From NCBI RefSeq assembly GCF_013315695.1, contig NZ_CP054353.1: DNA of 64,000 nt; one strand, given 5' to 3'. Position numbers and translations under genes: made by a program. The notes below the pieces were generated by a model. The model was not told the DNA's origin, made no database searches, and worked only from the letters and a program-made list of their open reading frames with translations. Every line of letters starts with the position of its first letter. Positions within the stretch are counted from its first letter, which is position 1. Source of the DNA: Escherichia coli. Its GTDB lineage: Bacteria > Pseudomonadota > Gammaproteobacteria > Enterobacterales > Enterobacteriaceae. This document shows, one piece after another, positions 1-19,051 of the stretch.

Positions 1-1423
1 CTTCATACGATTTTTTCAGTATCACATCAGTGTGTTTGGTTAGGTCTTTGAAAATGCCTTTATTCATCGCGTCGTAGCGTTTGGCGTTGCTCTCAACAGG
101 CATAAAGATATCTTTCACGCGAACCATTTTGTCGACAGCCGTTGCGTAATCCGGATACAGACCAAGCCCTACCGCCGTATTAATCGCCGCCCCCAGACTT
201 GCACAACCATTAATGGCGTTACGGCGTGCCGGAAGGTTGAACACGTCGGCAAAAATCTGCATAAACAGATCGCTGTTCGAACCGCCGCCAGTAATGATCA
301 CATGCTTTGCAAAGTGATTCATTTCATTACACATATTGTCGTAATTGTTCTTCAGCGTCAGCGCCACGCTTTCCAGTATCGAACGATATATCCATGCGTA
401 ATCCATGCTGGAATCAAAGCCGATCATAATCCCGCGTTTGTATGGTTCCCACGGATTGGTCAGCCAGTCCAGCACCGTCATCAGACCATTACAGCCAGGT
501 GGCACACAAGACGCTTTTTTGTTGAGCAAATCTTCCGGTGAAAGATCCTGTGCTTTGGCATCCTGAATTAACGACTCGCCTAGCATGTCGCGTAGCCAGC
601 TCACCGTCCACATGCCTTTGCGAATACCGTAACCTTCATACAGCAAGGTTTGCGGAATAGAAGACATAATCGGCCAGTACGCTACCGGATCTTTCGGCAG
701 TGCTTTACCGTTCATCATCAGCGCGATGTAGGTGCCAAGAGAAATCACCGCCGTTTCATCATCCAGTAATCCGGCTCCCAGAGCTTCTACCGGTTTATCA
801 CTGGTGGTACAAACAACCGGCAGCCCAGCTGGGAAATGTGTCGCCAGCGCGGCTTGAGGAGTGATATGCCCAAGAACAGTGCCCGGCATTTGCACATCAA
901 ACAGCATATGACGGGGGATATTAAACTTCTCCATGACTGCGGCATCTTCACTCCATGCCCAGCTCTTATAATCCACCGGCCACTGACCAAAATAGTTGGC
1001 GATATTGTCTTTAAACTCGCCGGTTAAGCGATGCGTCAGATAACCCGAAAAAGAGGTGACATATGCCACGTCAGGATTCGTATGTTCGTAAGGGCGTGTA
1101 ACGCGTGCATCCTGCCAGCTAATCAACGGCGCAGCTGGCGTGCCATCGGCTTTCAATAACGCACGGCAGCAACGGATGGATCCCAGACCAATACCGACAA
1201 TATCTTCTTTATTTCCGGCAAACTGACTCATCAAATCGTGACCGGCAAAACATAATGATGCCCATAAATCGTCGTCAGGATGTTCTGCGGTATCGGCATC
1301 TGGCGTGTGCATCGGCTGCAATAAGCCTTTGCCTTCGCAAACCACATTACCTTCCAGATCATACATCACCACTTTTGTGCTCTGACTTCCGCCATCAATC
1401 CCTATGATGTATTTTTTCGACAT
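1..1423 (-). CDS. ygcE: FGGY-family sugar kinase, C-terminal end cut off by the window edge
   Basis: Minus-strand ORF starting at ATG (1423-1421) with a GGAG RBS upstream; hand translation MSKKYIIGIDGGSQSTKVV... shows the FGGY kinase N-terminal glycine-rich motif; runs off the left edge so it is absent from the ORF track. Symbol by synteny. Confidence 0.75.
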   Translation of the reverse strand, partial: MSKKYIIGIDGGSQSTKVVMYDLEGNVVCEGKGLLQPMHTPDADTAEHPDDDLWASLCFAGHDLMSQFAGNKEDIVGIGLGSIRCCRALLKADGTPAAPLISWQDARVTRPYEHTNPDVAYVTSFSGYLTHRLTGEFKDNIANYFGQWPVDYKSWAWSEDAAVMEKFNIPRHMLFDVQMPGTVLGHITPQAALATHFPAGLPVVCTTSDKPVEALGAGLLDDETAVISLGTYIALMMNGKALPKDPVAYWPIMSSIPQTLLYEGYGIRKGMWTVSWLRDMLGESLIQDAKAQDLSPEDLLNKKASCVPPGCNGLMTVLDWLTNPWEPYKRGIMIGFDSSMDYAWIYRSILESVALTLKNNYDNMCNEMNHFAKHVIITGGGSNSDLFMQIFADVFNLPARRNAINGCASLGAAINTAVGLGLYPDYATAVDKMVRVKDIFMPVESNAKRYDAMNKGIFKDLTKHTDVILKKSYE

Positions 1424-1449
1424 GATTTTTCTCCTGTAATTTTCTGGAC

Positions 1450-2727
1450 TTACTTGCTGCTAGCCATAGCAGGGGCGCTATCAGCAGTACGAATTTTTTG
1501 GAACAGCAAAAAGGTAAAGACGATCACCATGGCAAGCGCCGCCATGCCCATCAGCCACATATTGCGGTAGGCTTCTGCAGCGGGCAGGGTGTCTTGCCAG
1601 TAGCCGATAATCGGGTAAACGAAGACATCCGGCAGGAATCCAATCACCGAACAAATACCTACCGTGGTGCCCATAATGTAAGACGGTGTTCTCGCTTCGC
1701 CAGGGCAGGCCCAGTACAGCCCGCGTGAGGCGTAACAGGTGAATCCCAGCAGTAAAATCAGGCCAATCCCCATCGCGACCGATTGCGGGTTAGAGTTCGT
1801 GACGAGCAGGGCAGTTAACGCCAGCAAGCCGAGTACGGAAAGGATTTGGATCACGCGGGTAGGGGATTTCACTTTACTGTAGGTGGTGATAATGCCGCCA
1901 AGTGGACCACACAGCGCGCGGAATATTTTGTTGATCACAATCCCCATGTAGCTCGCCGCCACCAGCGACATGCCGTACATTTCGGTGAGATAGTTGGTGG
2001 AGTAACTCAGAATGGCGTAGATGGTGAAGACACCAAAAATCACCATGCTGCAATACCAGGTGGTGCTGATGCGCAAAACGGCCAGGATGTCGCTAAGCTG
2101 GAATGACTGTTTTTCTTCGTTATTGGTATTGCGCAGGTTGTTGTTATCGCTAACAAAAAACCAGCACAGAATCCCCAATAAAATGTAGACCACACTGTAG
2201 ATGATAATGACCGTTTTCAGGCTGGCGCTGTCATCCGGTGCAAAGCGAGAAAAGACCCACATGGTAAACACCGCCAGCGACATTACACCGACGCCGCGCA
2301 GCCCTTCCATCCAGCCCATAATTTTCCCTTGCTCGCTATGATCGCCCAGCAACGATGCGGCTTTAATCGACACCGACCACAGCATTAAAATCGTCGTTAT
2401 CGCAAAGGCGACCTGAATACAGAGCATTACCCACAGCGGTGGATAAGTTGCCATTAACAGACCCAGTAATCCGGTAATGATCATCGCGGAAGTAATCATT
2501 TTGCGATGTGAGAATTTATCGGCAATAACGCCACTGGGCGCATAAAGAATAATAGCTGCAATACCAAAGGTACTCATTATTAAACCTATCTCGGTATTGC
2601 TGAATCCCATAAATTTTGCTATGGGAATTTGATAAATATAACGTAAATAAGCCAGGTCGAAACTAACGCCGCCGCTAAAACTAATTATCGCGAGGGTTAT
2701 CCAACGGCGATATGAGTTGTGTTGCAT
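1450..2727 (-). CDS. yqcE: MFS-family transporter (425 aa)
   Basis: 425-aa ORF, highly hydrophobic with multiple predicted transmembrane segments; position between the sugar kinase and ygcW matches K-12 synteny. Confidence 0.8.
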   Translation of the reverse strand: MQHNSYRRWITLAIISFSGGVSFDLAYLRYIYQIPIAKFMGFSNTEIGLIMSTFGIAAIILYAPSGVIADKFSHRKMITSAMIITGLLGLLMATYPPLWVMLCIQVAFAITTILMLWSVSIKAASLLGDHSEQGKIMGWMEGLRGVGVMSLAVFTMWVFSRFAPDDSASLKTVIIIYSVVYILLGILCWFFVSDNNNLRNTNNEEKQSFQLSDILAVLRISTTWYCSMVIFGVFTIYAILSYSTNYLTEMYGMSLVAASYMGIVINKIFRALCGPLGGIITTYSKVKSPTRVIQILSVLGLLALTALLVTNSNPQSVAMGIGLILLLGFTCYASRGLYWACPGEARTPSYIMGTTVGICSVIGFLPDVFVYPIIGYWQDTLPAAEAYRNMWLMGMAALAMVIVFTFLLFQKIRTADSAPAMASSK

Positions 2728-2905
2728 ATCGTATTCCCATTTGTAATAGACAAAAAAAAGAGAAAAGTAAGCCGCCCTTTCAGGTGGATTACTTTTCTCA
2801 GGTCTCTAGTAATTGCAATAAGAAATAACATGGAAAGCAGTGGTGTTGTGTGAGAGTAGTCACGCTTCTGCTTTTTAAAATTATTTGATAATACGAATAT
2901 CACAC

Positions 2906-2921
2906 TGTGATTACGATCACA
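2906..2921. promoter_or_regulatory. Consensus cAMP-CRP binding site in the yqcE/ygcW divergent intergenic region
   Basis: TGTGATTACGATCACA reads as TGTGA-N6-TCACA, a perfect match to both CRP consensus half-sites. Confidence 0.55.
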
Positions 2922-2974
2922 TTAGCGCTTATGCCCTTATGCTAAAAATTATATCCAGTTACCAGAGATAATGA

Positions 2975-3022
2975 GAAAGGTAACTTCCCTCTCGCGGGGG
3001 AAGTTACCTTTCTTTTTTTTTT
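2975..3022 (+). terminator. Strong intrinsic terminator/attenuator hairpin 25 nt upstream of the ygcW start codon
   Basis: Perfect 15-bp stem GAAAGGTAACTTCCC / GGGAAGTTACCTTTC (2975-2989 and 2998-3012) with an 8-nt loop, followed by a run of 10 T (3013-3022). Upstream AGTTACC (2957-2963) could pair with GGTAACT in the 5' arm as an antiterminator. Confidence 0.5.
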
Positions 3023-3046
3023 GCCTTACGGAAATTGGAGCTAACT

Positions 3047-3832
3047 ATGTCAATCGAATCTCTCAATGCGTTCTCAATGGATTTTTTCTCCCTGAAAGGT
3101 AAAACAGCAATTGTTACCGGCGGGAATAGCGGTTTAGGCCAGGCATTTGCCATGGCGTTGGCCAAAGCTGGCGCAAATGTCTTTATCCCTAGCTTCGTCA
3201 AAGATAACGGCGAAACAAAGGAAATGATTGAAAAACAGGGTGTCGAAGTTGATTTTATGCAGGTGGATATCACCGCAGAAGGCGCGCCGCAGAAGATTAT
3301 CGCTGCCTGCTGTGAGCGCTTCGGTACCGTAGATATTCTGGTTAACAATGCCGGTATTTGTAAGCTGAATAAGGTGCTGGACTTCGGTCGTGCCGACTGG
3401 GACCCGATGATTGATGTGAACCTGACCGCCGCATTCGAGTTAAGCTACGAAGCGGCAAAAATTATGATCCCGCAGAAAAGCGGTAAAATTATTAATATCT
3501 GTTCATTGTTCTCTTACTTAGGTGGACAATGGTCACCTGCATATTCTGCAACTAAACATGCTCTTGCCGGATTCACCAAAGCTTATTGTGATGAACTAGG
3601 TCAATATAATATTCAGGTAAATGGTATTGCCCCTGGATATTACGCTACCGATATCACCCTGGCGACACGCAGTAATCCAGAAACCAATCAGCGCGTTCTT
3701 GATCATATTCCAGCAAACCGTTGGGGCGATACTCAGGATTTAATGGGCACAGCCATATTTCTCGCAAGTCCGGCATCGAATTATGTCAACGGACATTTAT
3801 TAGTGGTTGATGGCGGTTATTTAGTGCGCTAA
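3047..3832 (+). CDS. ygcW: Short-chain dehydrogenase/reductase (SDR), 261 aa
   Basis: ORF with TGGNSGLG Rossmann motif and YxxxK-type active-site region; start taken at the ATG preceded by a GGAG RBS (MSIESLNAF...). Confidence 0.85.
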   Translation: MSIESLNAFSMDFFSLKGKTAIVTGGNSGLGQAFAMALAKAGANVFIPSFVKDNGETKEMIEKQGVEVDFMQVDITAEGAPQKIIAACCERFGTVDILVNNAGICKLNKVLDFGRADWDPMIDVNLTAAFELSYEAAKIMIPQKSGKIINICSLFSYLGGQWSPAYSATKHALAGFTKAYCDELGQYNIQVNGIAPGYYATDITLATRSNPETNQRVLDHIPANRWGDTQDLMGTAIFLASPASNYVNGHLLVVDGGYLVR

Positions 3833-3901
3833 TCCATAACGGTGGTTTCTGTTTTCTCTTATTAATGATTATTCCATTTTTATTATCAGGAAGGAATTAC
3901 T

Positions 3902-5356
3902 ATGTCTTTATCTCGCGCAGCGATTGTCGACCAGCTAAAGGAAATTGTTGGTGCAGATCGCGTAATTACCGATGAAACAGTATTAAAGAAAAACAGTATT
4001 GACCGTTTTCGCAAATTTCCGGATATTCATGGCATTTATACTTTGCCTATTCCGGCAGCGGTCGTAAAACTCGGTTCCACAGAGCAAGTGTCCCGTGTGC
4101 TGAATTTTATGAATGCGCACAAAATTAACGGTGTGCCGCGTACCGGTGCTTCCGCTACCGAAGGTGGACTGGAAACCGTTGTGGAAAACTCGGTAGTGCT
4201 TGATGGCTCTGCAATGAATCAAATCATTAATATTGATATAGAGAATATGCAGGCGACGGCGCAATGTGGTGTTCCGCTGGAGGTGCTGGAAAACGCGTTG
4301 CGTGAAAAAGGTTACACCACGGGGCATTCACCGCAATCAAAACCGCTGGCGCAGATGGGCGGCCTGGTAGCAACCCGCAGTATCGGGCAGTTCTCCACAC
4401 TCTACGGCGCAATCGAAGATATGGTCGTTGGTCTGGAAGCAGTATTGGCTGATGGCACCGTAACACGTATTAAAAACGTGCCACGCCGCGCGGCTGGCCC
4501 GGACATTCGTCACATTATCATCGGCAACGAAGGTGCATTGTGCTATATCACTGAAGTAACAGTGAAAATCTTTAAGTTCACCCCGGAAAACAACCTCTTC
4601 TACGGCTATATCCTGGAAGATATGAAAACCGGCTTCAACATCCTGCGTGAAATCATGGTGGAAGGGTATCGTCCGTCGATTGCTCGTTTGTATGATGCTG
4701 AAGATGGCACCCAACACTTCACCCATTTTGCCGACGGCAAATGCGTGCTGATCTTTATGGCTGAAGGTAACCTTCGCATTGCGAAGGCGACGGGCGAAGG
4801 GATTGCTGAAATCGTGGCACGTTACCCGCAATGCCAGAGCGTGGACAGCAAGCTGATCGAAACCTGGTTTAACAACCTGAACTGGGGACCGGATAAAGTG
4901 GCTGCCGAACGTGTGCAGATCCTCAAAACCGGCAACATGGGCTTTACCACCGAAGTGTCCGGCTGCTGGAGCTGCATTCACGAAATCTACGAAAGCGTTA
5001 TTAACCGTATTCGTACCGAGTTCCCGCACGCCGACGACATCACCATGCTGGGCGGTCACTCCTCTCATAGCTATCAGAACGGCACCAACATGTACTTCGT
5101 CTACGACTACAACGTCGTTGACTGTAAGCCGGAAGAGGAAATCGACAAGTACCACAATCCGCTCAACAAAATCATCTGCGAAGAAACCATTCGCCTCGGC
5201 GGTTCGATGGTGCACCACCACGGTATTGGTAAACATCGCGTTCACTGGAGCAAACTGGAACACGGCAGCGCGTGGACGTTGCTGGAAGGGCTGAAAAAAC
5301 AGTTCGATCCTAACGGCATTATGAATACGGGTACTATCTATCCGATTGAAAAATAA
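3902..5356 (+). CDS. ygcU: FAD-linked oxidase/dehydrogenase (484 aa)
   Basis: 484-aa ORF with an FAD-binding PCMH-type N-terminal region; RBS AGGAAGG upstream. Confidence 0.85.
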   Translation: MSLSRAAIVDQLKEIVGADRVITDETVLKKNSIDRFRKFPDIHGIYTLPIPAAVVKLGSTEQVSRVLNFMNAHKINGVPRTGASATEGGLETVVENSVVLDGSAMNQIINIDIENMQATAQCGVPLEVLENALREKGYTTGHSPQSKPLAQMGGLVATRSIGQFSTLYGAIEDMVVGLEAVLADGTVTRIKNVPRRAAGPDIRHIIIGNEGALCYITEVTVKIFKFTPENNLFYGYILEDMKTGFNILREIMVEGYRPSIARLYDAEDGTQHFTHFADGKCVLIFMAEGNLRIAKATGEGIAEIVARYPQCQSVDSKLIETWFNNLNWGPDKVAAERVQILKTGNMGFTTEVSGCWSCIHEIYESVINRIRTEFPHADDITMLGGHSSHSYQNGTNMYFVYDYNVVDCKPEEEIDKYHNPLNKIICEETIRLGGSMVHHHGIGKHRVHWSKLEHGSAWTLLEGLKKQFDPNGIMNTGTIYPIEK

Positions 5357-5397
5357 TGTGTGAGGCAGCGTTCCGCGATGACGGGGCGTTGCCTTTT

Positions 5398-5419
5398 CGG
5401 CTTCTCAGGCGAGAAGCCG
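5398..5419 (+). terminator. Intercistronic hairpin between ygcU and ygcS (possible partial terminator)
   Basis: CGGCTTCTC-AGGC-GAGAAGCCG, a 9-bp GC-rich stem followed by TTCTTATT. Confidence 0.3.
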
Positions 5420-5449
5420 TTCTTATTACCGGACAATGAAGGGGTAAAG

Positions 5450-6787
5450 ATGAACACTTCACCGGTGCGAATGGATGATTTACCGCTTAACCGTTTTCAC
5501 TGTCGAATTGCTGCGCTCACTTTCGGCGCGCACCTGACCGACGGTTATGTTCTCGGCGTCATTGGTTACGCCATTATTCAGCTTACGCCCGCCATGCAAC
5601 TGACGCCGTTAATGGCGGGAATGATCGGCGGCTCGGCGCTCCTTGGTTTGTTTCTTGGCAGCCTGGTTCTTGGGTGGATCTCCGACCATATTGGTCGGCA
5701 AAAAATCTTCACCTTCAGCTTTTTGCTGATTACGCTCGCTTCGCTCTTGCAATTTTTTGCCACCACGCCAGAGCATCTTATTGGATTGCGCATTTTGATC
5801 GGCATTGGTCTGGGAGGCGATTACTCAGTCGGTCACACCTTGCTGGCTGAATTTTCCCCGCGCCGCCATCGCGGTATTTTGCTGGGCGCATTCAGTGTGG
5901 TGTGGACCGTAGGCTATGTGCTGGCAAGTATTGCCGGACATCACTTTATTACCGAAAGCCCGGAGGCCTGGCGCTGGCTGCTGGCATCAGCGGCGTTACC
6001 AGCCTTGCTGATTACGCTGCTACGTTGGGGCACGCCGGAATCGCCACGCTGGCTACTGCGCCAGGGGCGTTTTGCAGAAGCTCACGCTATCGTTCATCGC
6101 TATTTTGGCCCGCATGTTTTACTGGGCGATGAAGTGGCAACGGCGACCCATAAACACATCAAAACCTTGTTCTCTTCGCGCTACTGGCGGCGCACAGCGT
6201 TTAACAGCGTCTTCTTTGTCTGCCTCGTAATCCCATGGTTTGTGATTTATACCTGGCTGCCAACTATCGCCCAGACTATTGGACTGGAAGATGCGCTGAC
6301 TGCCAGCCTGATGCTTAATGCGTTGTTAATTGTTGGCGCGCTGCTGGGATTAGTTCTGACGCACCTGCTGGCACATCGCAAGTTTTTGCTGGGAAGTTTT
6401 TTGTTGCTGGCGGCAACGCTGGTAGTGATGGCCTGTTTGCCTTCCGGCAGTTCATTAACGCTGCTGCTTTTTGTTCTCTTCAGCACCACCATTTCGGCAG
6501 TCAGTAATCTGGTGGGCATTTTGCCTGCGGAAAGTTTTCCTACTGACATTCGCTCGCTGGGCGTCGGTTTTGCCACCGCCATGAGTCGGTTGGGGGCGGC
6601 GGTAAGTACTGGCCTGCTGCCGTGGGTGCTGGCGCAGTGGGGAATGCAAGCCACCTTATTGCTCCTGGCGGCAGTGTTGTTGGTTGGTTTTGTTGTGACC
6701 TGGCTATGGGCACCAGAAACCAAAGCACTCCCGCTGGTGGCGGCGGGAAATGTAGGAGGTGCGAATGAACATTCTGTTAGCGTTTAA
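5450..6787 (+). CDS. ygcS: MFS transporter (445 aa)
   Basis: ORF track frame 5360-6787; start placed at the ATG (MNTSPVRMDD...) with a GAAGGGG RBS, downstream of the hairpin; hydrophobic multi-pass protein. Confidence 0.8.
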   Translation: MNTSPVRMDDLPLNRFHCRIAALTFGAHLTDGYVLGVIGYAIIQLTPAMQLTPLMAGMIGGSALLGLFLGSLVLGWISDHIGRQKIFTFSFLLITLASLLQFFATTPEHLIGLRILIGIGLGGDYSVGHTLLAEFSPRRHRGILLGAFSVVWTVGYVLASIAGHHFITESPEAWRWLLASAALPALLITLLRWGTPESPRWLLRQGRFAEAHAIVHRYFGPHVLLGDEVATATHKHIKTLFSSRYWRRTAFNSVFFVCLVIPWFVIYTWLPTIAQTIGLEDALTASLMLNALLIVGALLGLVLTHLLAHRKFLLGSFLLLAATLVVMACLPSGSSLTLLLFVLFSTTISAVSNLVGILPAESFPTDIRSLGVGFATAMSRLGAAVSTGLLPWVLAQWGMQATLLLLAAVLLVGFVVTWLWAPETKALPLVAAGNVGGANEHSVSV

Positions 6788-7544
6788 AGCCGAACCGGAT
6801 GCCGGAATGCTGGCGGAAAAAGAGTGGCAGGCGGCGGCTCAGGGTAATATTGGACCAGATGTTTCGCTACTGCGAAGTTTACTCGGTGCTGATGAACAGG
6901 CTGCCGCCGCGCTGCTGTTGGCGCAGAGAAAAAACGGTACGTCGATGTCTTTAACCGCGTTGAGCATGGGGGATGAACGGGCGTTGCACTGGCTGCGCTA
7001 TCTCATGGCTCTTGGGTTTGAGGACGCTGTATTGCTGGAGACGGTGGCAGATCTGCGCTTTGCGCCGGAATTTGTCGCTCGCCATATTGCCGAATGGCAG
7101 CGTCAGAATCCGCTGGATCTGATAATTACCGGCTGCCAAAGCAGCGAAGGGCAGAATGGGCAAACGCCATTTTTGCTGGCGGAAATGCTGGGCTGGCCCT
7201 GCTTCACCCTGGTGGAGCGTTTTACTCTCGACGCGCCGTTTATCACCCTTGAACAGCGTACTGAACATGGGCTGCGCTGTTACCGGGTTCGCTTGCCTGC
7301 GGTGATTGCCGTGCGCCAGTGTGGTGAAGTGGCCTTGCCAGTACCGGGAATGCGCCAGCGAATGGCTGCGGGGAAAGCAGAAATTATCCGTAAAACTGTT
7401 GCTGTCGAATTGCCAGCGATGCAGTGTCTGCAACTGGCAAGAGCAGAGCAACGACGCGGAGCGACGCTGATTGATGGGCAAACGGTAGCAGAAAAAGCGC
7501 AAAAGCTATGGCAGAACTATTTACGCCAAAGGATGCAGCCATGA
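6765..7544 (+). CDS. ygcR: Electron-transfer flavoprotein beta subunit-like (FixA-like)
   Basis: ORF MNILLAFKAEPD...; overlaps the ygcS stop and the ygcQ start, consistent with translational coupling. Confidence 0.8.
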   Translation: MNILLAFKAEPDAGMLAEKEWQAAAQGNIGPDVSLLRSLLGADEQAAAALLLAQRKNGTSMSLTALSMGDERALHWLRYLMALGFEDAVLLETVADLRFAPEFVARHIAEWQRQNPLDLIITGCQSSEGQNGQTPFLLAEMLGWPCFTLVERFTLDAPFITLEQRTEHGLRCYRVRLPAVIAVRQCGEVALPVPGMRQRMAAGKAEIIRKTVAVELPAMQCLQLARAEQRRGATLIDGQTVAEKAQKLWQNYLRQRMQP

Positions 7545-8401
7545 ATATCGCAATTGTGACAATAAATCAGGAGAATGCCGCAATAGCGAGCTGGCTGGCA
7601 GAACAGGATTTCAGCGGTTGTACCCTGGCACACTGGCAGATTGAACCTCAGCCCGTAGTGGCGGAACAGGTGCTGGATGCGCTGGTGGAACAGTGGCAGC
7701 GAACGCCAGCGGACGTTGTTCTCTTTCCGCCGGGAACGTTTGGTGATGAACTGTCGACACGGCTGGCCTGGCGTTTACATGGTGCAAGCATCTGCCAGGT
7801 GACTTCGTTAGATATTTCAACCGTAAGCGTGCGCAAATCCCACTGGGGAAATGCGCTAACGGCGACGCTGCAAACAGAAAAACGCCCGCTATGCCTTTCC
7901 CTTGCCCGCCAGGCGGGAGCAGTGAAAAACGCCACATTGCCCTCTGGTATGCAGCAACTGAACATTGTCCCCGGCGCACTTCCCGACTGGCTGGTTAGCA
8001 CAGAGGATCTGAAAAATGTTACCCGTGACCCATTAGCTGAGGCCAGACGGGTGCTGGTGGTGGGGCAGGGCGGAGAGGCAGATAACCAGGAAATCGCTAT
8101 GCTGGCAGAAAAGCTGGGAGCCGAAGTGGGCTACAGTCGGGCGCGAGTAATGAACGGTGGCGTTGATGCCGAAAAAGTGATTGGTATTTCCGGACATCTG
8201 CTGGCACCTGAGGTGTGTATTGTTGTTGGCGCTTCTGGCGCAGCAGCGTTAATGGCGGGCGTATGCAATAGCAAGTTTGTGGTGGCGATTAATCATGACG
8301 CCAGCGCAGCGGTATTTTCACAGGCAGATGTTGGCGTGGTTGATGACTGGAAAGTGGTGCTGGAGGCAATGGTGACAAACATTCACGCAGATTGCCAATA
8401 A
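7541..8401 (+). CDS. ygcQ: Electron-transfer flavoprotein alpha subunit-like (FixB-like)
   Basis: ORF MNIAIVTINQ... with a C-terminal ETF-alpha FAD-binding region (GISGHLLAPEVCIVVGASGA). Confidence 0.8.
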   Translation: MNIAIVTINQENAAIASWLAEQDFSGCTLAHWQIEPQPVVAEQVLDALVEQWQRTPADVVLFPPGTFGDELSTRLAWRLHGASICQVTSLDISTVSVRKSHWGNALTATLQTEKRPLCLSLARQAGAVKNATLPSGMQQLNIVPGALPDWLVSTEDLKNVTRDPLAEARRVLVVGQGGEADNQEIAMLAEKLGAEVGYSRARVMNGGVDAEKVIGISGHLLAPEVCIVVGASGAAALMAGVCNSKFVVAINHDASAAVFSQADVGVVDDWKVVLEAMVTNIHADCQ

Positions 8402-8439
8402 CGTGTTGCTGGATGATCCTGCCTACGGTTCTGGCCTGG

Positions 8440-8490
8440 GGACTTGTAGGCCTGATAAGACGCGTCAAGCGTCGCATCAGGCGCTGAATG
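8440..8490. repeat. REP (repetitive extragenic palindromic) element between convergent ygcQ and ygcP
   Basis: GTAGGCCTGATAAGACGCGTCAAGCGTCGCATCAGGCG is the classic enterobacterial REP palindrome. Confidence 0.6.
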
Positions 8491-8547
8491 TCCGATGTGG
8501 CGTACAGCCTACAAATCACACAAATTCAATTCGTTACGATTATCCCG

Positions 8548-9123
8548 TCAAAGCAATTTTTTCGCTAGCGTCCAGACCCCGGTATTCGTGGTGGAAAGCG
8601 CCACGACACCTGCGTTAATCGCATTACGCGCATCTTCTTCATCGCACACCAGCCCGCCAGCAATCAGCGGTTGGCGGATTTTCTCCGTCACCCAGCCCAG
8701 CACTTTGGGCATACAGCCAGGCAGGATCTCAATACAATCCGGATTCGATTGCGCAACTTGCTTATCAATGTTGTGAAACGAAATCGAATCAACAATAAAC
8801 AGGCGATGAATACAGAAAAAACCTTCCGCTCTTGCTGCTTTCAGCATTGAGGCTTTGGTACTGATAATGCCGTCCGCCTCGGTCACCAGTTTCAGAAACT
8901 GAATCACCACTTCTTTGTTCGATGCGCCTTCCAGCAAATCGACATGAATAAAGGCATATTTCCCGGCACTTTTAATCTTTTTGACGATATGACTGATGGT
9001 GCAGATATTGCCGTACAACACGGAAATAAACTGGCATTCAGAGTCGATTGCCAGTTGCAGGCTGGCATTATCTTTAACGGCAGCAATCACCGGATTCTGG
9101 CGGAGCAGGTGTAAGAGGGGCAT
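8548..9123 (-). CDS. ygcP: GlpP-family (glycerol-3-phosphate-responsive type) transcription antiterminator-like protein
   Basis: 191-aa ORF with the conserved SAGKxxFxHVDL region of the GlpP antiterminator family. Confidence 0.8.
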   Translation of the reverse strand: MPLLHLLRQNPVIAAVKDNASLQLAIDSECQFISVLYGNICTISHIVKKIKSAGKYAFIHVDLLEGASNKEVVIQFLKLVTEADGIISTKASMLKAARAEGFFCIHRLFIVDSISFHNIDKQVAQSNPDCIEILPGCMPKVLGWVTEKIRQPLIAGGLVCDEEDARNAINAGVVALSTTNTGVWTLAKKLL

Positions 9124-9139
9124 AAATTATCCTTATTAT

Positions 9140-9400
9140 TTATCCAAAACGGTAGGTGATGCCGAATCCGGAAGGCGGATAGCGCCACTGTTGTAGTGTT
9201 GATTCGTCGCACAGCAAACGGCAGGTGCCACACTCCAGGCAGCCGCGATAATCAACGCGTAAGTCACCTTCCGGTGTGAGCGAAAAAAGACCAGCCGGAC
9301 AAGCGTTAATCAACCGTTGTACCGTCTGGCGCTCAACGGAGTCAGCCGGAACAATGTGCGGCGCATCGGCAACGCGCCAGAGATTACGGGCTACAGACAT
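9140..9400 (-). CDS. ygcO: Ferredoxin-like protein (FixX-like), 86 aa
   Basis: ORF MSVARNLW... with a CxxCxxC cysteine cluster; overlaps the ygcN 3' end. Confidence 0.75.
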   Translation of the reverse strand: MSVARNLWRVADAPHIVPADSVERQTVQRLINACPAGLFSLTPEGDLRVDYRGCLECGTCRLLCDESTLQQWRYPPSGFGITYRFG

Positions 9401-10662
9401 CGAATACTCCTGACAACATCGCCCGCCAGATGCCACAGGCCGTGACGACGTAAATGACGCCAGAGCAACTGGCGCAGCGGCGGAACAGGTTTATCACCCT
9501 GATCCCATAAATCGCGGGAAATATCCTGCATTAACGCAGGCCACGCACGGTACCATCCAGGGCGTTGCAAAAGCGCCGGAACATGCTGATAACGTTGTAG
9601 AACATCCCATAGCAGGCTGCGCTCGACGTTGTGATGATAAAGCGCAAACAGATTTTGCGGCTCGCGGTGCTGGCAGGCGCTTATCAGCGTTTGTGCCGCC
9701 GCCTGCGCGCCAGTCAGCGCCATATCCATGCCGCGCACGGAAATTCCGGTATTGACGCAACTGCGCAACGCATCGCCCACCAGCAGCCAGCCGTTACCGG
9801 CGTATTGCACCGGCATACTGTGCAAGCCACCTTCTGGCACCAGATGCGCACCATACTCCAGTGATTCCGTGTTTTTGATAAGCGGGCGCACTGCCGGATG
9901 CGTTTTAAAGCGAGCCAGCAGCTCGCTTGCCGGAACACGACTTTGCGTAAGGGAAGAGAGCGGGCAAACAATCCCTAACGAGAGCGTTTGTTGATTAGTA
10001 TAAAGAAATGCGCCGCCGGGTAAGTCATCACAGATCCCGCCGCTGAACAGCAACGCTGCGCCTTCGTTATTCTCCAGATGAAAACGTTCTTCAATAGCGG
10101 ATGTTTCCAGCGACAGCACTTCTTTGATCCCCAACGCCATCGCTTCGCCAGCAGGACGAGTCACTAACCCGTGACGCTCAGCCAGGACGCTGTTGGCACC
10201 TTCTGCCAGCACCACATAACGGGCGCGGAGAATATCGTCACCACAAATGACACCACACACCCTGCCGTTTTCTTCATACAGCGCATCTACCGTCGCACCA
10301 GGGATGCATTCGACACCTTCTTTTTCGGCTTCGGCAACCAGCCACGGATCGAACCGTGCACGTAATACGCTCCAGGATTCACCGCCGGGCTGTAAGCTGG
10401 AAAACGTCGTTGCGCCATCCGGCGTTAGCAGAGAAAGACTTTCGTGAGTGATGCGTCGTTCAAGAGGCGCGGTCAGGTGAAACTGAGGGAGGAGTTCCGC
10501 GAGCGCCTGGGTATATAAACGCCCGCCGGAAAGGTTTTTACTGCCGGGAATTTCAGCGCGTTCCAGTAACAGAACGGATAAACCTGCCCGCGCGCAGCGT
10601 AAAGCACAAGCGGTGCCTGCTATACCGGCACCAATAATAATAATGTCGCAGTCGTCTTCCAT
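9391..10662 (-). CDS. ygcN: FAD-dependent oxidoreductase (FixC-like), 423 aa
   Basis: ORF MEDDCDIIIIGAGIAGTACA... carrying the GxGxxG dinucleotide-binding motif. Confidence 0.8.
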   Translation of the reverse strand: MEDDCDIIIIGAGIAGTACALRCARAGLSVLLLERAEIPGSKNLSGGRLYTQALAELLPQFHLTAPLERRITHESLSLLTPDGATTFSSLQPGGESWSVLRARFDPWLVAEAEKEGVECIPGATVDALYEENGRVCGVICGDDILRARYVVLAEGANSVLAERHGLVTRPAGEAMALGIKEVLSLETSAIEERFHLENNEGAALLFSGGICDDLPGGAFLYTNQQTLSLGIVCPLSSLTQSRVPASELLARFKTHPAVRPLIKNTESLEYGAHLVPEGGLHSMPVQYAGNGWLLVGDALRSCVNTGISVRGMDMALTGAQAAAQTLISACQHREPQNLFALYHHNVERSLLWDVLQRYQHVPALLQRPGWYRAWPALMQDISRDLWDQGDKPVPPLRQLLWRHLRRHGLWHLAGDVVRSIRCL

Positions 10663-15906: not shown

Positions 15907-16008
15907 ATGGACAAAAGCCCCAGGCGATATTTCTATCAACCTGAGGCCAGCGTTCGAACCCAAACAATTCGAATGTTAGTCTCTTCTTTGCAGGGAGGCA
16001 AGACATGC
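15907..16008 (+). CDS. mok-like upstream reading frame, translationally coupled to hok
   Basis: 33-codon ORF ([15 protein letters not shown]...GGKTC) with a GAGG RBS; its TGA stop overlaps the hok ATG (ATGCTGA), the arrangement typical of hok/mok loci. Confidence 0.35.
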
Positions 16009-16157
16009 TGACAAAATATGCCCTTGTGGCAATCATAGTGCTGTGTTTTACAGTACTGGGATTCACGCTGATGGTAGGCGACTCGTTGTGTGAGTTGAGT
16101 ATCAGAGAACGTGGTATGGAGTTTAAGGCGGTTCTCGCTTACGAATCGAAGAAGTAG
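16005..16157 (+). CDS. hokX: Hok/Gef-family type I toxin (50 aa), apparently intact
   Basis: [50 protein letters not shown]: single TM helix followed by the conserved SLCE...AYES motif of Hok/Gef; GGAGG RBS; a GC hairpin (CGCGGGG-GTAAAA-CCCCGCG, 16164-16183) lies just downstream. Symbol by position between cysH and cas3. Confidence 0.7.
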
Positions 16158-16199
16158 CCACCACGCGGGGGTAAAACCCCGCGTACTGAATTGTGATGG

Positions 16200-16351
16200 T
16201 TTGGTCTCCTGCACCCTTTTTTAATTTATATTGTTTATGTGAATATTATGCCTATGTTTATTATTCATATATATTACGGATGAAAATTATTTGATTATTC
16301 ATAATGTAAATATTTTATTGAACGATATATATCACAGATAATTTTTAATAT
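16200..16351 (+). promoter_or_regulatory. AT-rich cas3 upstream/promoter region
   Basis: About 150 bp of very AT-rich DNA immediately upstream of cas3; in K-12 the cas promoters are H-NS silenced (established knowledge, not verified for this sequence). Confidence 0.4.
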
Positions 16352-19051
16352 ATGCGTAAATATCCTTTAAGTTTACTGAAGGATAAAAATATTGTGACTT
16401 TTTTTGATTTCTGGGGAAAAACCCGACGCGGCGAGAAAGACGGGGGCGACGACTATCACCTTCTTTGCTGGCATTCGCTGGATGTAGCCGCGATGGGCTA
16501 TTTAATGGTTAAAAGCAATTGCTTCGGACTGGCTGACTATTTTCGTCAATTAGGTTTCGCTGACACGGAGCTGGCAGCACAATTTTTCGCCTGGCTGCTG
16601 TGCTGGCACGATATTGGAAAATTTGCCCGCTCTTTTCAGCAACTTTACCTGCACCCACAACTCAAGGTTCCGGAAGGCGCAAGAAAGAATTACGAAAAGA
16701 TCTCTCATTCAACGCTGGGCTACTGGTTGTGGAACCATTATTTAAGTGAATGTCAGGAGTTGCTTCCTTCATCTTCACTCTCTCCGCGCAAACTTAAACG
16801 GGTGATGGAGATGTGGATGCCCATGACTACCGGGCATCATGGTCGACCCCCTGAGCGTATGGATGAACTGGATAATTTTCTGCCTGAAGACAAAGGTGCC
16901 GCACGAGATTTTCTCCTTGCAATCAAGGTACTGTTTCCGCTCATAGAGATCCCCACATTCTGGGATGATGACGAGGGCGTTGAACTTATAAAACAACTTT
17001 CCTGGTATATCTCTGCAACCGTCGTACTTGCAGACTGGACGGGATCGTCAACGCGATATTTTCCACGCGTCGCACAGACAATGGATATTGAAGATTACTG
17101 GCAGAAAACTTTAGTTCAGGCTCAAAACGCCTTAACCGTCTTTCCTCCAAAAGCAGAAAGCGCGCCTTTCACCGGAATTAATACGCTGTTTCCTTTTATT
17201 GAGAATCCGACACCGCTACAGCAAAAGGTGCTGGATCTGGATATCAGCCAGCCGGGACCACAGTTATTTATTCTGGAGGATGTAACCGGCGCAGGTAAAA
17301 CAGAAGCGGCGCTTATCCTGGCGCACAGGTTGATGGCTGCGGGGAAAGCGCAGGGTTTGTTTTTTGGCCTGCCAACAATGGCAACGGCCAATGCCATGTA
17401 CGATCGACTGGTCAAAACCTGGCTTGCTTTCTATTCGCCAGAGTCCCGCCCCAGCCTGGTGCTGGCACACAGTGCCCGAACATTAATGGACCGCTTTAAT
17501 GAATCACTCTGGTCCGGTGATTTAGTCGGGTCAGAAGAACCGGATGAACAAACGTTCAGTCAGGGATGTGCGGCCTGGTTTGCCGACAGTAACAAGAAGG
17601 CGCTACTGGCTGAAATTGGCGTCGGCACGCTGGATCAGGCGATGATGGCTGTGATGCCGTTCAAACATAATAATCTGCGGCTTCTGGGACTGAGTAACAA
17701 AATCCTGCTGGCTGATGAGATCCATGCCTGTGACGCTTACATGTCATGCATTCTTGAAGGGCTGATCGAGCGGCAGGCGCGTGGCGGAAACAGCGTCATT
17801 TTGCTTTCTGCCACGTTATCTCAACAGCAGCGCGACAAACTCGTTGCTGCCTTTGCGCGTGGTATAGAGGGCCAGCAAGAAGCTCCGTTCCTGGAAAAGG
17901 ATGATTACCCCTGGCTGACGCACGTTACGAAATCCGATGTGCATTCACACCGGGTAGCGACGCGCAAAGACGTTGAGCGCAGCGTGAGTGTGGGTTGGCT
18001 TCATAGCGAACAAGAGTGTATTGCGCGTATCGAATCGGCGGTAAGTCAGGGGAAATGTATCGCCTGGATCCGAAATTCTGTCGATGACGCCATCCAGGTT
18101 CATCGTCAGTTACTTGCCCGCGGCGTCATTCCTGCTTCCAGCCTTTCACTTTTTCATAGCCGCTTTGCTTTTAGCGATCGCCAGCGAATTGAAACGGAGA
18201 CGCTGGCACGCTTTGGTAAAGAAGACTGTTCACAGCGTGCCGGAAAAGTCCTCATTTGTACTCAAGTCCTGGAGCAGAGCGTTGACTGCGACCTGGACGA
18301 AATGATTTCCGACCTTGCCCCTGTTGATTTACTGATCCAGCGAGCAGGGCGATTACAGCGACATATCCGCGATATGAATGGCCAGTTAAAGCGTGACGGT
18401 AAAGACGAGCGTCACCCTCCTGAATTGCTGATTCTGGCCCCCGTCTGGGACGACTCTCCGGGTGACGAATGGTTTGGCAGTGCCATGCGTAACAGTGCAT
18501 TTGTCTATCCCGATCATGGGCGAATCTGGCTGACGCAGCGTGTGCTGCGTGAGCAAGGTGCTATTCAGATGCCACACTCAGCCCGGCTTCTGATTGAATC
18601 AGTCTACGGTGAGGACGTAGTAATGCCGGAAGGGTTTGCCCGCAGCGAGCAGGAGCAAGTGGGCAAATATTACTGCGATCGCGCAATGGCTAAAAAGTTT
18701 GTACTGAACTTCAGGCCCGGCTATGCCGCCAATATCAACGATTACCTCCCGGAAAAACTGTCGACACGTCTGGCTGAAGAGTCTGTTTCCCTGTGGCTGG
18801 CTACCTGTATTGACGGTGTGGTGAAGCCTTATGCCACAGGTGCACACGCATGGGAAATGAGCGTTGTCAGAGTGCGCCGAAGCTGGTGGAAAAAACATCG
18901 GGATGAGTTTGCTTTACTGGAAGGGGATGCGTTCAGGCAGTGGTGCGTTGAACAGCGGCATGATCCGGAGATGGCAAACGTGATTTTAGTCACCGATGAC
19001 GAAAGTTGTGGGTATTCGGCTACGGAGGGATTGATTGGCAAGGTTGGTTGA
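16352..19051 (+). CDS. cas3: Type I-E Cas3 HD-nuclease/helicase
   Basis: 899-aa ORF with an N-terminal HD region (HSLDVAA...HDIGKF), Walker A GAGKTEAA and DExH box LLADEIHACD; start could instead be the GTG 14 codons downstream. Confidence 0.9.
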   Translation: MRKYPLSLLKDKNIVTFFDFWGKTRRGEKDGGDDYHLLCWHSLDVAAMGYLMVKSNCFGLADYFRQLGFADTELAAQFFAWLLCWHDIGKFARSFQQLYLHPQLKVPEGARKNYEKISHSTLGYWLWNHYLSECQELLPSSSLSPRKLKRVMEMWMPMTTGHHGRPPERMDELDNFLPEDKGAARDFLLAIKVLFPLIEIPTFWDDDEGVELIKQLSWYISATVVLADWTGSSTRYFPRVAQTMDIEDYWQKTLVQAQNALTVFPPKAESAPFTGINTLFPFIENPTPLQQKVLDLDISQPGPQLFILEDVTGAGKTEAALILAHRLMAAGKAQGLFFGLPTMATANAMYDRLVKTWLAFYSPESRPSLVLAHSARTLMDRFNESLWSGDLVGSEEPDEQTFSQGCAAWFADSNKKALLAEIGVGTLDQAMMAVMPFKHNNLRLLGLSNKILLADEIHACDAYMSCILEGLIERQARGGNSVILLSATLSQQQRDKLVAAFARGIEGQQEAPFLEKDDYPWLTHVTKSDVHSHRVATRKDVERSVSVGWLHSEQECIARIESAVSQGKCIAWIRNSVDDAIQVHRQLLARGVIPASSLSLFHSRFAFSDRQRIETETLARFGKEDCSQRAGKVLICTQVLEQSVDCDLDEMISDLAPVDLLIQRAGRLQRHIRDMNGQLKRDGKDERHPPELLILAPVWDDSPGDEWFGSAMRNSAFVYPDHGRIWLTQRVLREQGAIQMPHSARLLIESVYGEDVVMPEGFARSEQEQVGKYYCDRAMAKKFVLNFRPGYAANINDYLPEKLSTRLAEESVSLWLATCIDGVVKPYATGAHAWEMSVVRVRRSWWKKHRDEFALLEGDAFRQWCVEQRHDPEMANVILVTDDESCGYSATEGLIGKVG

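Follow-up and report, generated by a model that had tools for sequence, protein, structure and literature searches.

The window analysed here is a 64,000-nucleotide (nt) stretch of Escherichia coli DNA (NCBI RefSeq assembly GCF_013315695.1, contig NZ_CP054353.1), whose first 10,662 nt carry the ten-gene ygc cluster. We tentatively read this cluster as a regulon of the glp kind whose substrate would be a glycerol-type diol with an onium or betaine group attached, and in which electrons from the flavoenzyme YgcU would pass through an electron-transfer flavoprotein (ETF) and FixCX-type proteins to quinone, and we put the probability of this reading at about 45%. The cluster was already annotated; new are its split into a core and an accessory part, the active site of YgcU, which is of the alkyl-dihydroxyacetone-phosphate synthase (AGPS) type, the link to betaine transporters and MttB-family proteins, and the GlpP-type leader RNA. 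A first-pass annotation of the same DNA had seen a catabolic unit delivering electrons to quinone, which our analysis retains, but it had misplaced the centre of the system in the ETF–FixCX genes and probably also misjudged the substrate class, for which it had named polyols or sugar acids.

Conserved core and accessory redox module

A scan with one genome per species yielded 80 loci with YgcU relatives of 64–99% identity, from Enterobacterales, Desulfobacterota, SAR324, Negativicutes, Clostridia, halophilic Bacilli and Pseudonocardiaceae, onto all of which the ten E. coli proteins and a reference set of neighbours were mapped. Core counts refer to the 63 loci flanked by 4 kb or more on each side (39 from Enterobacterales and 24 from other phyla). 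The short-chain dehydrogenase/reductase (SDR) YgcW, the FGGY-family kinase YgcE and YgcU occur together in all 63, across five phyla, and 32 enterobacterial species share the whole ten-gene arrangement, so the grouping, which the first-pass annotation had proposed, is not a product of chance. YgcW is 63–97% identical across phyla and always adjoins YgcU, which itself is 64–75% identical in Firmicutes, Desulfobacterota and Actinomycetes (71–73% in Sporomusa, Alkalihalobacillus and Desulfobacula). The regulator YgcP is encoded in nearly all the Enterobacterales loci and in 14 of the 24 loci from other phyla. Two loci carry taxonomic labels at odds with their sequences, L008 (labelled as a Planctomycetota metagenome-assembled genome (MAG)), with a ygcU 99% identical to that of E. 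coli, and L029 (labelled Chryseobacterium sp.), with most of the cluster at enterobacterial identities and ygcU at 89%; both most likely reflect contamination or mis-binning in public assemblies.

The redox module is distributed more patchily. ETF together with YgcN and YgcO is present in 32 of the 39 Enterobacterales loci and ETF is missing from the other seven (Erwinia, Pantoea, Izhakiella and Serratia proteamaculans type). Outside Enterobacterales it is found in 13 of 24 loci, comprising all 12 from Clostridia, Negativicutes, other anaerobic Bacillota and Desulfobacterota and one Actinomycetes MAG (L074); six Bacilli, four Pseudonocardiaceae and SAR324 lack it. The locus of Halobacillus halophilus is a minimal one of five genes. 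The ETF–FixCX genes, taken earlier as the heart of the system, are thus absent from 18 of the 63 complete loci, whereas the set of SDR, FGGY kinase and YgcU is absent from none. Among Enterobacterales, YgcW, YgcU, YgcP and YqcE are about 90% identical and YgcR, YgcQ, YgcO and YgcN 40–60%. From this patchy distribution and lower identity, the redox module is an accessory, faster-evolving add-on whose distribution tracks an anaerobic or facultative lifestyle, and the simplest reading is that it serves as the anoxic electron outlet of YgcU. In the ETF-bearing loci of other phyla the ETF beta gene always lies directly 3' of ygcU, and in 11 of these 13 loci a second, very divergent GlcD-like oxidase gene directly follows ETF alpha. 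These second FAD_binding_4 oxidases of anaerobes (L003 13241–14782, L005 13283–14845, L006 9789–11417 and 14 more loci) have 510–560 residues, with a GlcD-like C-terminal half and barely any resemblance to YgcU (BLASTP E 0.001). They may be the real ETF partner in anaerobes, or may catalyse a further step.

YgcU (ygcU, 3902–5356, + strand) had been described as a generic FAD-linked oxidase. It matches Pfam FAD_binding_4 (124 bits) and FAD-oxidase_C (69 bits), and a YgcU profile searched against the Protein Data Bank (PDB) returned AGPS as the closest solved relative (E 6e-56, 193 bits), followed by glycolate oxidase (E 1e-34, 123 bits), LctD (E 7e-25, 91 bits) and, more weakly (below 91 bits), D-lactate and D-2-hydroxyglutarate dehydrogenases. 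Single-sequence comparison likewise gave AGPS at E 5e-40 against LctD at E 1e-21. In the HMMER alignment, Arg419, Tyr578 and the His615–617 loop of AGPS (guinea-pig numbering), to which the structural literature on that enzyme assigns catalytic roles, correspond to Arg262, Tyr398 and His438–440 of YgcU, and none of these residues varies among 12 sequences drawn from four phyla. The AGPS crystal variant Y578F (PDB entry 4bca) differs exactly at the column aligned with Tyr398, confirming the register of the alignment. YgcU has 484 residues and AGPS 658; the alignment begins at AGPS residue 200, and YgcU lacks the N-terminal approximately 150–200 residues that form the N-terminal domain of AGPS, a family that also has a long hydrophobic tunnel to accommodate fatty acyl and alkyl chains. 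Judged from its sequence, YgcU is AGPS-like at the predicted active site and is not a lipid enzyme.

The active site of AGPS handles compounds of the form X-CH2-CO-CH2-O-phosphate. In the established mechanism, acyl-dihydroxyacetone phosphate (acyl-DHAP) forms an adduct with flavin N5 through its C1 carbanion, and the substituent at C1 is lost and replaced by a nucleophile. The conservation of YgcU, with its AGPS-type residues, points to a candidate flavin reaction, as yet undescribed, on a DHAP-like compound.

The other two core enzymes are compatible with such a compound. YgcE (ygcE, from before position 1 to 1423, − strand, with the 3' 55 nt outside the window) matches FGGY_N and FGGY_C at 69 and 79 bits, comes near the cut-off of no FGGY subfamily model, and has LsrK and then glycerol kinases as its best solved relatives. 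YgcW (ygcW, 3047–3832, + strand) is an SDR oxidoreductase of the KduD or gluconate-5-dehydrogenase type according to RefSeq, Pfam and NCBIfam; its longest open reading frame starts at a TTG at 3035, and the RefSeq ATG at 3047 was used. FGGY kinases phosphorylate the terminal CH2OH of polyols and ketols, and KduD-like SDRs interconvert a secondary alcohol beside a terminal CH2OH and its ketone. By analogy, the two activities would be those needed to make an AGPS-type compound from X-CH2-CHOH-CH2OH. Compared with GlpK, YgcE keeps the catalytic Asp and the Arg aligned with GlpK D245 and R83 and lacks equivalents of E84 and of the Y135 segment; this comparison of glycerol-binding residues was set aside as uninformative. 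YgcE falls into two subtypes, one (E. coli, Citrobacter and Cedecea) 54–58% identical to Firmicute kinases and the other (Serratia, Rahnella, Erwinia and Pantoea) 43–50% identical to the E. coli enzyme and resembling SAR324 and Desulfobacterota kinases. The existence of the two subtypes (L035–L051 versus L010–L034) suggests that the kinase gene was exchanged within Enterobacterales.

The same three enzyme types recur in eukaryotic ether-lipid metabolism, as alkylglycerol kinase, the SDR acyl/alkyl-DHAP reductase and AGPS, which act on 1-substituted glycerol, glycerol-3-phosphate and DHAP; YgcU shares with AGPS the FAD domain, the cap domain and the equivalents of Arg419, Tyr578 and His615–617. 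The ygc set differs in being cytoplasmic, catabolic in context and ETF-linked, and YgcW is KduD-like rather than an orthologue of DHRS7B; in this comparison we infer the direction of the reaction and the substituent for the ygc enzymes.

The redox module comprises ygcR, a divergent ETF beta subunit (6765–7544, + strand), and ygcQ, a short (286 residues) divergent ETF alpha subunit (7541–8401, + strand), both called by RefSeq, Pfam and NCBIfam, together with ygcN (9391–10662, − strand) and ygcO (9140–9400, − strand). YgcR matches PF01012 at 58.7 bits, and YgcQ matches PF00766 at 63.3 bits and PF01012 at 30.2 bits; both lie far below the cut-offs of all ETF equivalog models. The best scores of YgcR are with canonical Paracoccus and human ETF beta, and the best solved relatives of YgcQ are the Geobacter ETF (PDB entry 5ow0), LctC and human ETF. 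YgcQ scores about equally against canonical ETFs (5ow0 and 1efv) and the bifurcating LctC, and for these short, divergent subunits flavin-based bifurcation, which would place a second FAD where canonical ETFs have AMP and which the first-pass annotation had allowed for, gains no specific support. YgcN matches NCBIfam FixC-type models at 364–380 bits, Thermotoga maritima FixC (7koe_C) at E 6e-56 and the ubiquinone-binding domain ETFQO_UQ-bd at 30.6 bits (cut-off 27.7). YgcO, which reaches 84 bits on the NCBIfam FixX model (below its cut-off), carries the CPAG...CxxCxxCxxxC motif of FixX-type 4Fe-4S ferredoxins. YgcN and YgcO are of the ETF:quinone oxidoreductase type, and, because of the FixC match and the ubiquinone-binding domain of YgcN, delivery of electrons to quinone is the sensible and most parsimonious reading.

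E. coli has two further, paralogous sets of ETF beta and alpha with FixC-type and FixX proteins, FixABCX, which accompanies the cai carnitine operon, and YdiQRST, which accompanies YdiO. Like the ygc module, each of them works for a single flavoprotein encoded in a catabolic operon, and FixABCX does so in a quaternary-amine pathway. The ygc module differs from both in that its partner is of the vanillyl-alcohol oxidase (VAO)/AGPS type rather than an acyl-CoA dehydrogenase and that its genes are divided over two operons; YgcR and YgcQ are also much more divergent, with YgcR at 33 bits on the FixA model and YgcQ at 62 bits on the FixB model.

Leader RNAs, YgcP and CRP

The yqcE–ygcW intergenic region of 319 nt contains two copies of a leader RNA and a binding site for the cAMP receptor protein (CRP). 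The yqcE leader (2750–2815, − strand) consists of an antiterminator strand AUUACU, a GAG-rich loop, a terminator hairpin and U8, and the ygcW leader (2956–3023, + strand) of AGUUACC, a GAG-rich loop and GGUAACU, overlapping a terminator formed by a 19-bp hairpin followed by U10 (2973–3023, + strand) just 5' of the ygcW start. The two score 57.8 bits (E 1e-15) and 55.9 bits (E 4.5e-15) with a leader model, R1; the yqcE terminator has a folding energy of −22.3 kcal/mol (z −3.7) and the ygcW terminator one of −34.7 kcal/mol (z −7.5). The antiterminator hairpins alone reach only −1.4 (yqcE) and −6.7 kcal/mol (ygcW), and, being weak beside such strong terminators, they imply that a protein is needed to hold the antiterminator. 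The motif TTACYAGAG-N-GAGAAARGTAA lies 5' of both hairpins; the window contains it twice, whereas 100 shuffles did not produce it once, and no further leader copies were found elsewhere in the 64 kb.

R1 is a sequence-only model built from 14 copies, and its alignment was fitted to no structure, so that the pair counts are not biased toward either fold. It retrieved 110 full-length leader copies from 83 sources (including the two in the window) in Proteobacteria, Firmicutes and Actinomycetes, and both helices were assessed on 104 distinct sequences. The antiterminator helix, AGUUACU with AGUAACU, is paired in 96.3% of cases, with five of its seven pairs changed on both sides, and the terminator helix, GAGAAAAGUA with UGCUUUUCUC, in 99.3%, with five of ten pairs changed on both sides. 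For neither helix did any of 500 shuffles reach the observed paired percentage and covariation score, and slid controls collapsed for both. One column changes its partner between the two helices and shows covariation with each (U-A to C-G in one and A-U to G-C in the other), which is expected of a switch. The leader also precedes the SDR gene in a number of other genera, among them Halobacillus, Virgibacillus, Geosporobacter, Dethiosulfatibacter, Sporomusa and Saccharopolyspora; the terminators of the Firmicutes and Actinomycetes copies have internal loops, were missed by a strict terminator scan and were found by reading.

The leader is absent from Rfam 15. In a metagenome scan with its 20-base core, nine of 43 rescanned loci unlike E. 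coli gave a significant leader match. Every one of the nine lay in a ygc or MttB context and eight were of full length; the remaining 34 loci were discarded as chance matches. No copy of the motif was found before canonical glp operons, in a scan not designed for that purpose.

The protein that would hold the antiterminator is probably YgcP (ygcP, 8548–9123, − strand), a GlpP-family RNA-binding antiterminator encoded by the last gene of ygcNOP. Residues 12–184 of YgcP match positions 1–173 of the 173 in G3P_antiterm (PF04309) at 209.8 bits, and the best solved relative is the Listeria glycerol-uptake antiterminator (PDB entry 3kts, E 5e-28). Leader and ygcP occur together in 56 loci and are both absent from 21; the six discordant loci comprise five with the leader alone (four of them on truncated contigs) and one with ygcP alone.

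In Bacillus subtilis, the antiterminator GlpP acts on conditional terminators in the glpD, glpFK and glpTQ leaders; in systems of this type the leader RNA is bound only by protein that carries glycerol-3-phosphate. To our knowledge, and in the literature searched, GlpP-type control has not been described for E. coli. The two systems share an FGGY kinase (GlpK), a flavin dehydrogenase (GlpD), transporters (GlpF and GlpT) and a regulator of the same Pfam family matching G3P_antiterm over its full length. Each regulated B. subtilis glp operon opens with its promoter, a short segment that the protein binds and then an intrinsic terminator (PMC9604022), and the glpD leader is laid out like the ygc leaders, with GGUC and GACC on the two sides of a GAG-rich loop and the GACC strand continuing into the arm of the terminator (PMC9604022). 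The leader sequences themselves differ and MAFFT did not place the ygc and glpD leaders in register, for which reason we describe the relation as one of architecture only. The ygc system differs further in that its dehydrogenase is AGPS-like rather than GlpD-like, an SDR is always present, the transporters are of MFS (major facilitator superfamily), BCCT or OpuA type rather than GlpF or GlpT, and the effector is presumably not glycerol-3-phosphate itself.

The CRP site, TGTGATTACGATCACA (2906–2921), was located by reading the sequence and is a perfect palindrome common to both divergent promoters. It is bound in vivo in enterotoxigenic E. coli, as seen by chromatin immunoprecipitation (PMC4287617), and in vitro with a Kd of about 1.7 nM (PMC12871828), and yqcE–ygcE is listed among Crp-activated operons (PMC8085971). 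From the leader at both operons, its co-occurrence with YgcP and the CRP site, we conclude that yqcE–ygcE and ygcWUSRQ are probably co-regulated by CRP and YgcP-dependent antitermination. The view that the genes form one functional unit is thereby strengthened, with leaders of the same type heading both divergent operons beside a common CRP site.

Substrate class and proposed pathway

The company kept by the leader and the core outside Enterobacterales bears on the substrate. Among the 110 leader copies, 55 lie directly 5' of the SDR operon, 44 of yqcE and five of BCCT genes; others directly precede an OpuA-type ABC operon, and MttB-family genes follow the leader in L077, L192 and L094/L145. 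A BCCT transporter, an OsmF/OpuAC-type binding protein or MttB is present in 19 of the 24 non-enterobacterial loci, and BCCT, OpuA-type and MttB proteins handle trimethylammonium-type compounds. The MttB gene that adjoins the cluster is uninterrupted, without the in-frame amber codon of pyrrolysine-type MttB, and its product, being only distantly related to the glycine-betaine enzyme MtgB, does not name the amine. In E. coli, the best solved relatives of YgcS (ygcS, 5378–6787, + strand, with Sugar_tr and MFS_1 domains) are SLC22A1/OCT1 and OCTN2 (E 4e-22), against 1.5e-17 for sugar porters, which makes it an organic-cation-carrier relative; its longest open reading frame starts at a GTG at 5360, and the RefSeq start was used.

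In Alkalihalobacillus oceani (L002 612–11443, + strand), a single eight-gene operon with a sigma-54 activator upstream combines an OpuAC-type binding protein, an aspartase-like lyase, a betaine-aldehyde-dehydrogenase-like enzyme and a Zn alcohol dehydrogenase with a BCCT transporter, the SDR, the FGGY kinase and YgcU. The BCCT, OpuA and MttB members of the regulon, YgcS, the core enzymes and this operon together point to a substrate in which a glycerol-type moiety would be joined to a betaine-type moiety. Three specific candidates were set aside: glycerophosphocholine, which ordinary phosphodiesterases deal with; carnitine, which gives no sensible product after the kinase step; and 2,3-dihydroxypropanesulfonate (DHPS), an anion that does not fit the BCCT and OpuA carriers.

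Other neighbours vary between lineages. ETF-less Enterobacterales and SAR324 add a succinate-semialdehyde-dehydrogenase-like gene, an aldo-keto reductase and a homologue of the formaldehyde-activating enzyme Fae (134.9 bits, cut-off 118; L036 2386–2889, − strand; L041; L050; L052 6890–7390, + strand). Fae with its dehydrogenase and reductase neighbours suggests that formaldehyde or reactive aldehydes may arise in the pathway. Locus L145 (6232–8705, + strand) has the leader, an MttB-family gene, a homologue of the ketopantoate hydroxymethyltransferase PanB that scores above the panB cut-offs, and an OpuA-type ABC transporter; upstream lie MmgE/PrpD, Fe-alcohol-dehydrogenase and octopine-dehydrogenase-family genes, the first two of which also stand beside the cluster in L006.

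A route for neutral polyols or sugar acids, as first proposed for the cluster, would combine uptake by MFS transporters, oxidation by YgcW and YgcU, phosphorylation by YgcE and ETF–FixCX as an obligatory electron outlet. We consider it unlikely, although several features agree with it: FGGY kinases act on polyols, ketoses and aldonates, YgcW resembles KduD and gluconate-5-dehydrogenase, YqcE weakly matches a galactonate-transporter subfamily, YgcS matches Sugar_tr, and CRP control is typical of secondary carbon sources. It does not account for a leader that also controls BCCT, OpuA-type and MttB genes in other phyla, while the identity of YgcU across those same phyla argues for one reaction. 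Aldolase, isomerase and dehydratase genes show no conserved association with the core, the supposedly obligatory outlet is missing from the 18 loci noted above, and YgcU is AGPS-like rather than alditol-oxidase-like. A catabolic route of kinase plus dehydrogenase stands, and a polyol or sugar acid is unlikely to be the whole story, given the betaine-type neighbours outside Enterobacterales, the SLC22-like YgcS and the lack of a conserved aldolase or isomerase.

Some observations weigh against a betaine-substituted diol feeding an ETF. The Sugar_tr match of YgcS reaches 180 bits and both E. coli transporters are MFS proteins, so that, on the strength of this match, a neutral polyol is still conceivable for Enterobacterales; four Pseudonocardiaceae loci and one Desulfobacteraceae locus have no betaine-type transporter. 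The ygcNOP operon has no leader, and co-expression of the redox module does not follow from it. YgcR and YgcQ are highly divergent (58 and 63 bits) and their cofactor content is uncertain. There is also a tension in the chemistry: a redox-neutral reaction of the AGPS type needs no ETF, whereas a plain dehydrogenase leaves the AGPS residues unexplained. An oxidative collapse of the flavin adduct would reconcile these residues with the ETF link.

Under the betaine-substituted diol reading we infer the following scheme, in which the nature of effector and substrate, the sequence of steps and the reaction of YgcU are all conjectural. The divergent promoters of yqcE–ygcE and ygcWUSRQ would use the one cAMP–CRP site, and each transcript would stop at once in its leader hairpin. 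Read-through would require YgcP, made from ygcNOP, to stabilize the weak antiterminator helix, presumably when loaded with a phosphorylated pathway intermediate; the expected effector is the product of YgcE, not necessarily glycerol-3-phosphate. YqcE, YgcS or both would import a glycerol-like diol or ketol with an onium or betaine-type substituent, which would be phosphorylated and oxidized to a 1-substituted dihydroxyacetone-phosphate analogue. The flavin of YgcU would attack the substituted carbon, releasing the substituent and a product at the level of a triose phosphate, and would be reoxidized by the ETF YgcR/YgcQ, from which electrons would pass via YgcN/YgcO to quinone. In aerobes without the ETF module, O2 or a housekeeping ETF may take its place.

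A more specific guess, which rests on very few loci and which we hold to be rather improbable, is that YgcE, YgcW and YgcU would run ether-lipid chemistry backwards to salvage the glycerol of betaine-headed glyceryl ethers, such as deacylated diacylglyceryl-trimethylhomoserine (DGTS). The example substrate would be glyceryl-trimethylhomoserine, which remains when DGTS-type betaine lipids, known from algae, fungi and plants, are deacylated. The kinase and then the SDR would produce a 1-O-substituted DHAP, and the AGPS-like flavoenzyme would cleave the ether, oxidatively via ETF in anaerobes. E. coli would export the released homoserine betaine and anaerobes would demethylate it with MttB; some aerobes might convert it into fumarate and trimethylamine through the alcohol dehydrogenase, betaine-aldehyde-dehydrogenase-like and aspartase-like gene products seen in Alkalihalobacillus.

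A different role for YgcU, with YgcR/YgcQ as a 2-hydroxyacid dehydrogenase–ETF resembling LctBCD and acting on a hydroxy-acid end product, the kinase and SDR forming a separate upstream step, appears improbable to us. LctBCD of Acetobacterium woodii (PDB entry 7qh2) likewise pairs an FAD_binding_4 dehydrogenase with an ETF, YgcU and YgcQ have LctD and LctC, respectively, among their best solved matches, and YgcU also matches glycolate oxidase. As a system LctBCD differs in that LctD is distant from YgcU, nothing links the ygc genes to lactate, and bifurcation is not indicated. The ETF genes directly follow the oxidase gene, and anaerobes add the second, GlcD-like oxidase after ETF alpha. Against this role, AGPS scores far higher with YgcU than the 2-hydroxyacid dehydrogenases do (193 bits for AGPS against 123 for glycolate oxidase and 91 for LctD), and the AGPS-specific catalytic residues are invariant in YgcU. 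In 18 loci YgcU moreover stands without ETF, yet kinase and SDR accompany it everywhere, and in anaerobes the GlcD-like partner of the ETF could be the second oxidase rather than YgcU.

Gene layout, surroundings and significance

The first 12,000 nt of the window are 100% identical to the E. coli chromosome NZ_LR898874.1 (strain MSB1_4I). The RefSeq genes lie where the first-pass annotation had put them, all ten of its family calls are borne out by Pfam and NCBIfam, and all ten reading frames are intact. The remaining gene, yqcE (1450–2727, − strand; RefSeq, Pfam and NCBIfam), encodes an MFS transporter and is the first of the yqcE–ygcE operon. Short gaps and overlaps (23 nt for ygcS/ygcR, 4 nt for ygcR/ygcQ and 10 nt for ygcN/ygcO, from RefSeq) suggest three transcription units, yqcE–ygcE, ygcWUSRQ and ygcNOP. 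None of the ten proteins reaches an equivalog or function-specific NCBIfam cut-off, and the genes are therefore best described as unassigned paralogues.

Between the convergent ends of ygcQ and ygcP, an element at 8449–8522 (− strand) matches Rfam naRNA4 at 31.9 bits (gathering score 59.5) and is probably of the repetitive extragenic palindromic (REP) type. The ygcNOP end of the cluster adjoins queD and then cysJIH; this flank continues with a hok/gef-family gene and cas3 (window about 16005–18000). The other flank holds a CRISPR array with queE, ygcG, an IS4 copy and eno (L001 4486–5307, upstream of the window).

No functional study of the ygc genes was found in the full-text literature searched, which yielded promoter and CRP surveys and incidental mentions, in agreement with the statement that their physiological role is not established. 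The ygc genes are not involved in the Citrobacter quaternary-amine and Eubacterium maltosivorans papers, and 'ygcO' in a review of PTS-Ntr is a misprint for ycgO. In a published study, D-serine signalling was unaffected by deletion of ygcU. That the E. coli cluster is a decaying or silent remnant without a present substrate, kept by linkage and held off by its leader, would agree with this lack of a reported phenotype or function, with the strong terminators and with the lower identity of YgcR, YgcQ, YgcO and YgcN than of YgcW, YgcU and YgcP, but is very unlikely in view of the ten intact reading frames, the presence of no less than 80% of the 12-kb query in 5061 out of the 5426 complete genomes of E. 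coli, the tightly bound perfect CRP palindrome and the compensatory changes in both leader helices, which indicate selection on the switch.

Ten core-genome E. coli genes without an assigned function are thus reduced to a three-enzyme core and an accessory redox module. E. coli would appear, from its sequence, to carry a protein–RNA attenuator of the GlpP type known from Bacillus, and the presumably YgcP-dependent leader offers a handle that can be fused to a reporter for finding the inducer. If the substrate is a quaternary-amine compound, the system is relevant to how microbes of the gut and the sea turn over betaines and trimethylamine; if the guess of glyceryl-ether salvage is true, it would be a new pathway in which a flavin enzyme cleaves ethers and would add to the microbial routes that involve precursors of trimethylamine.

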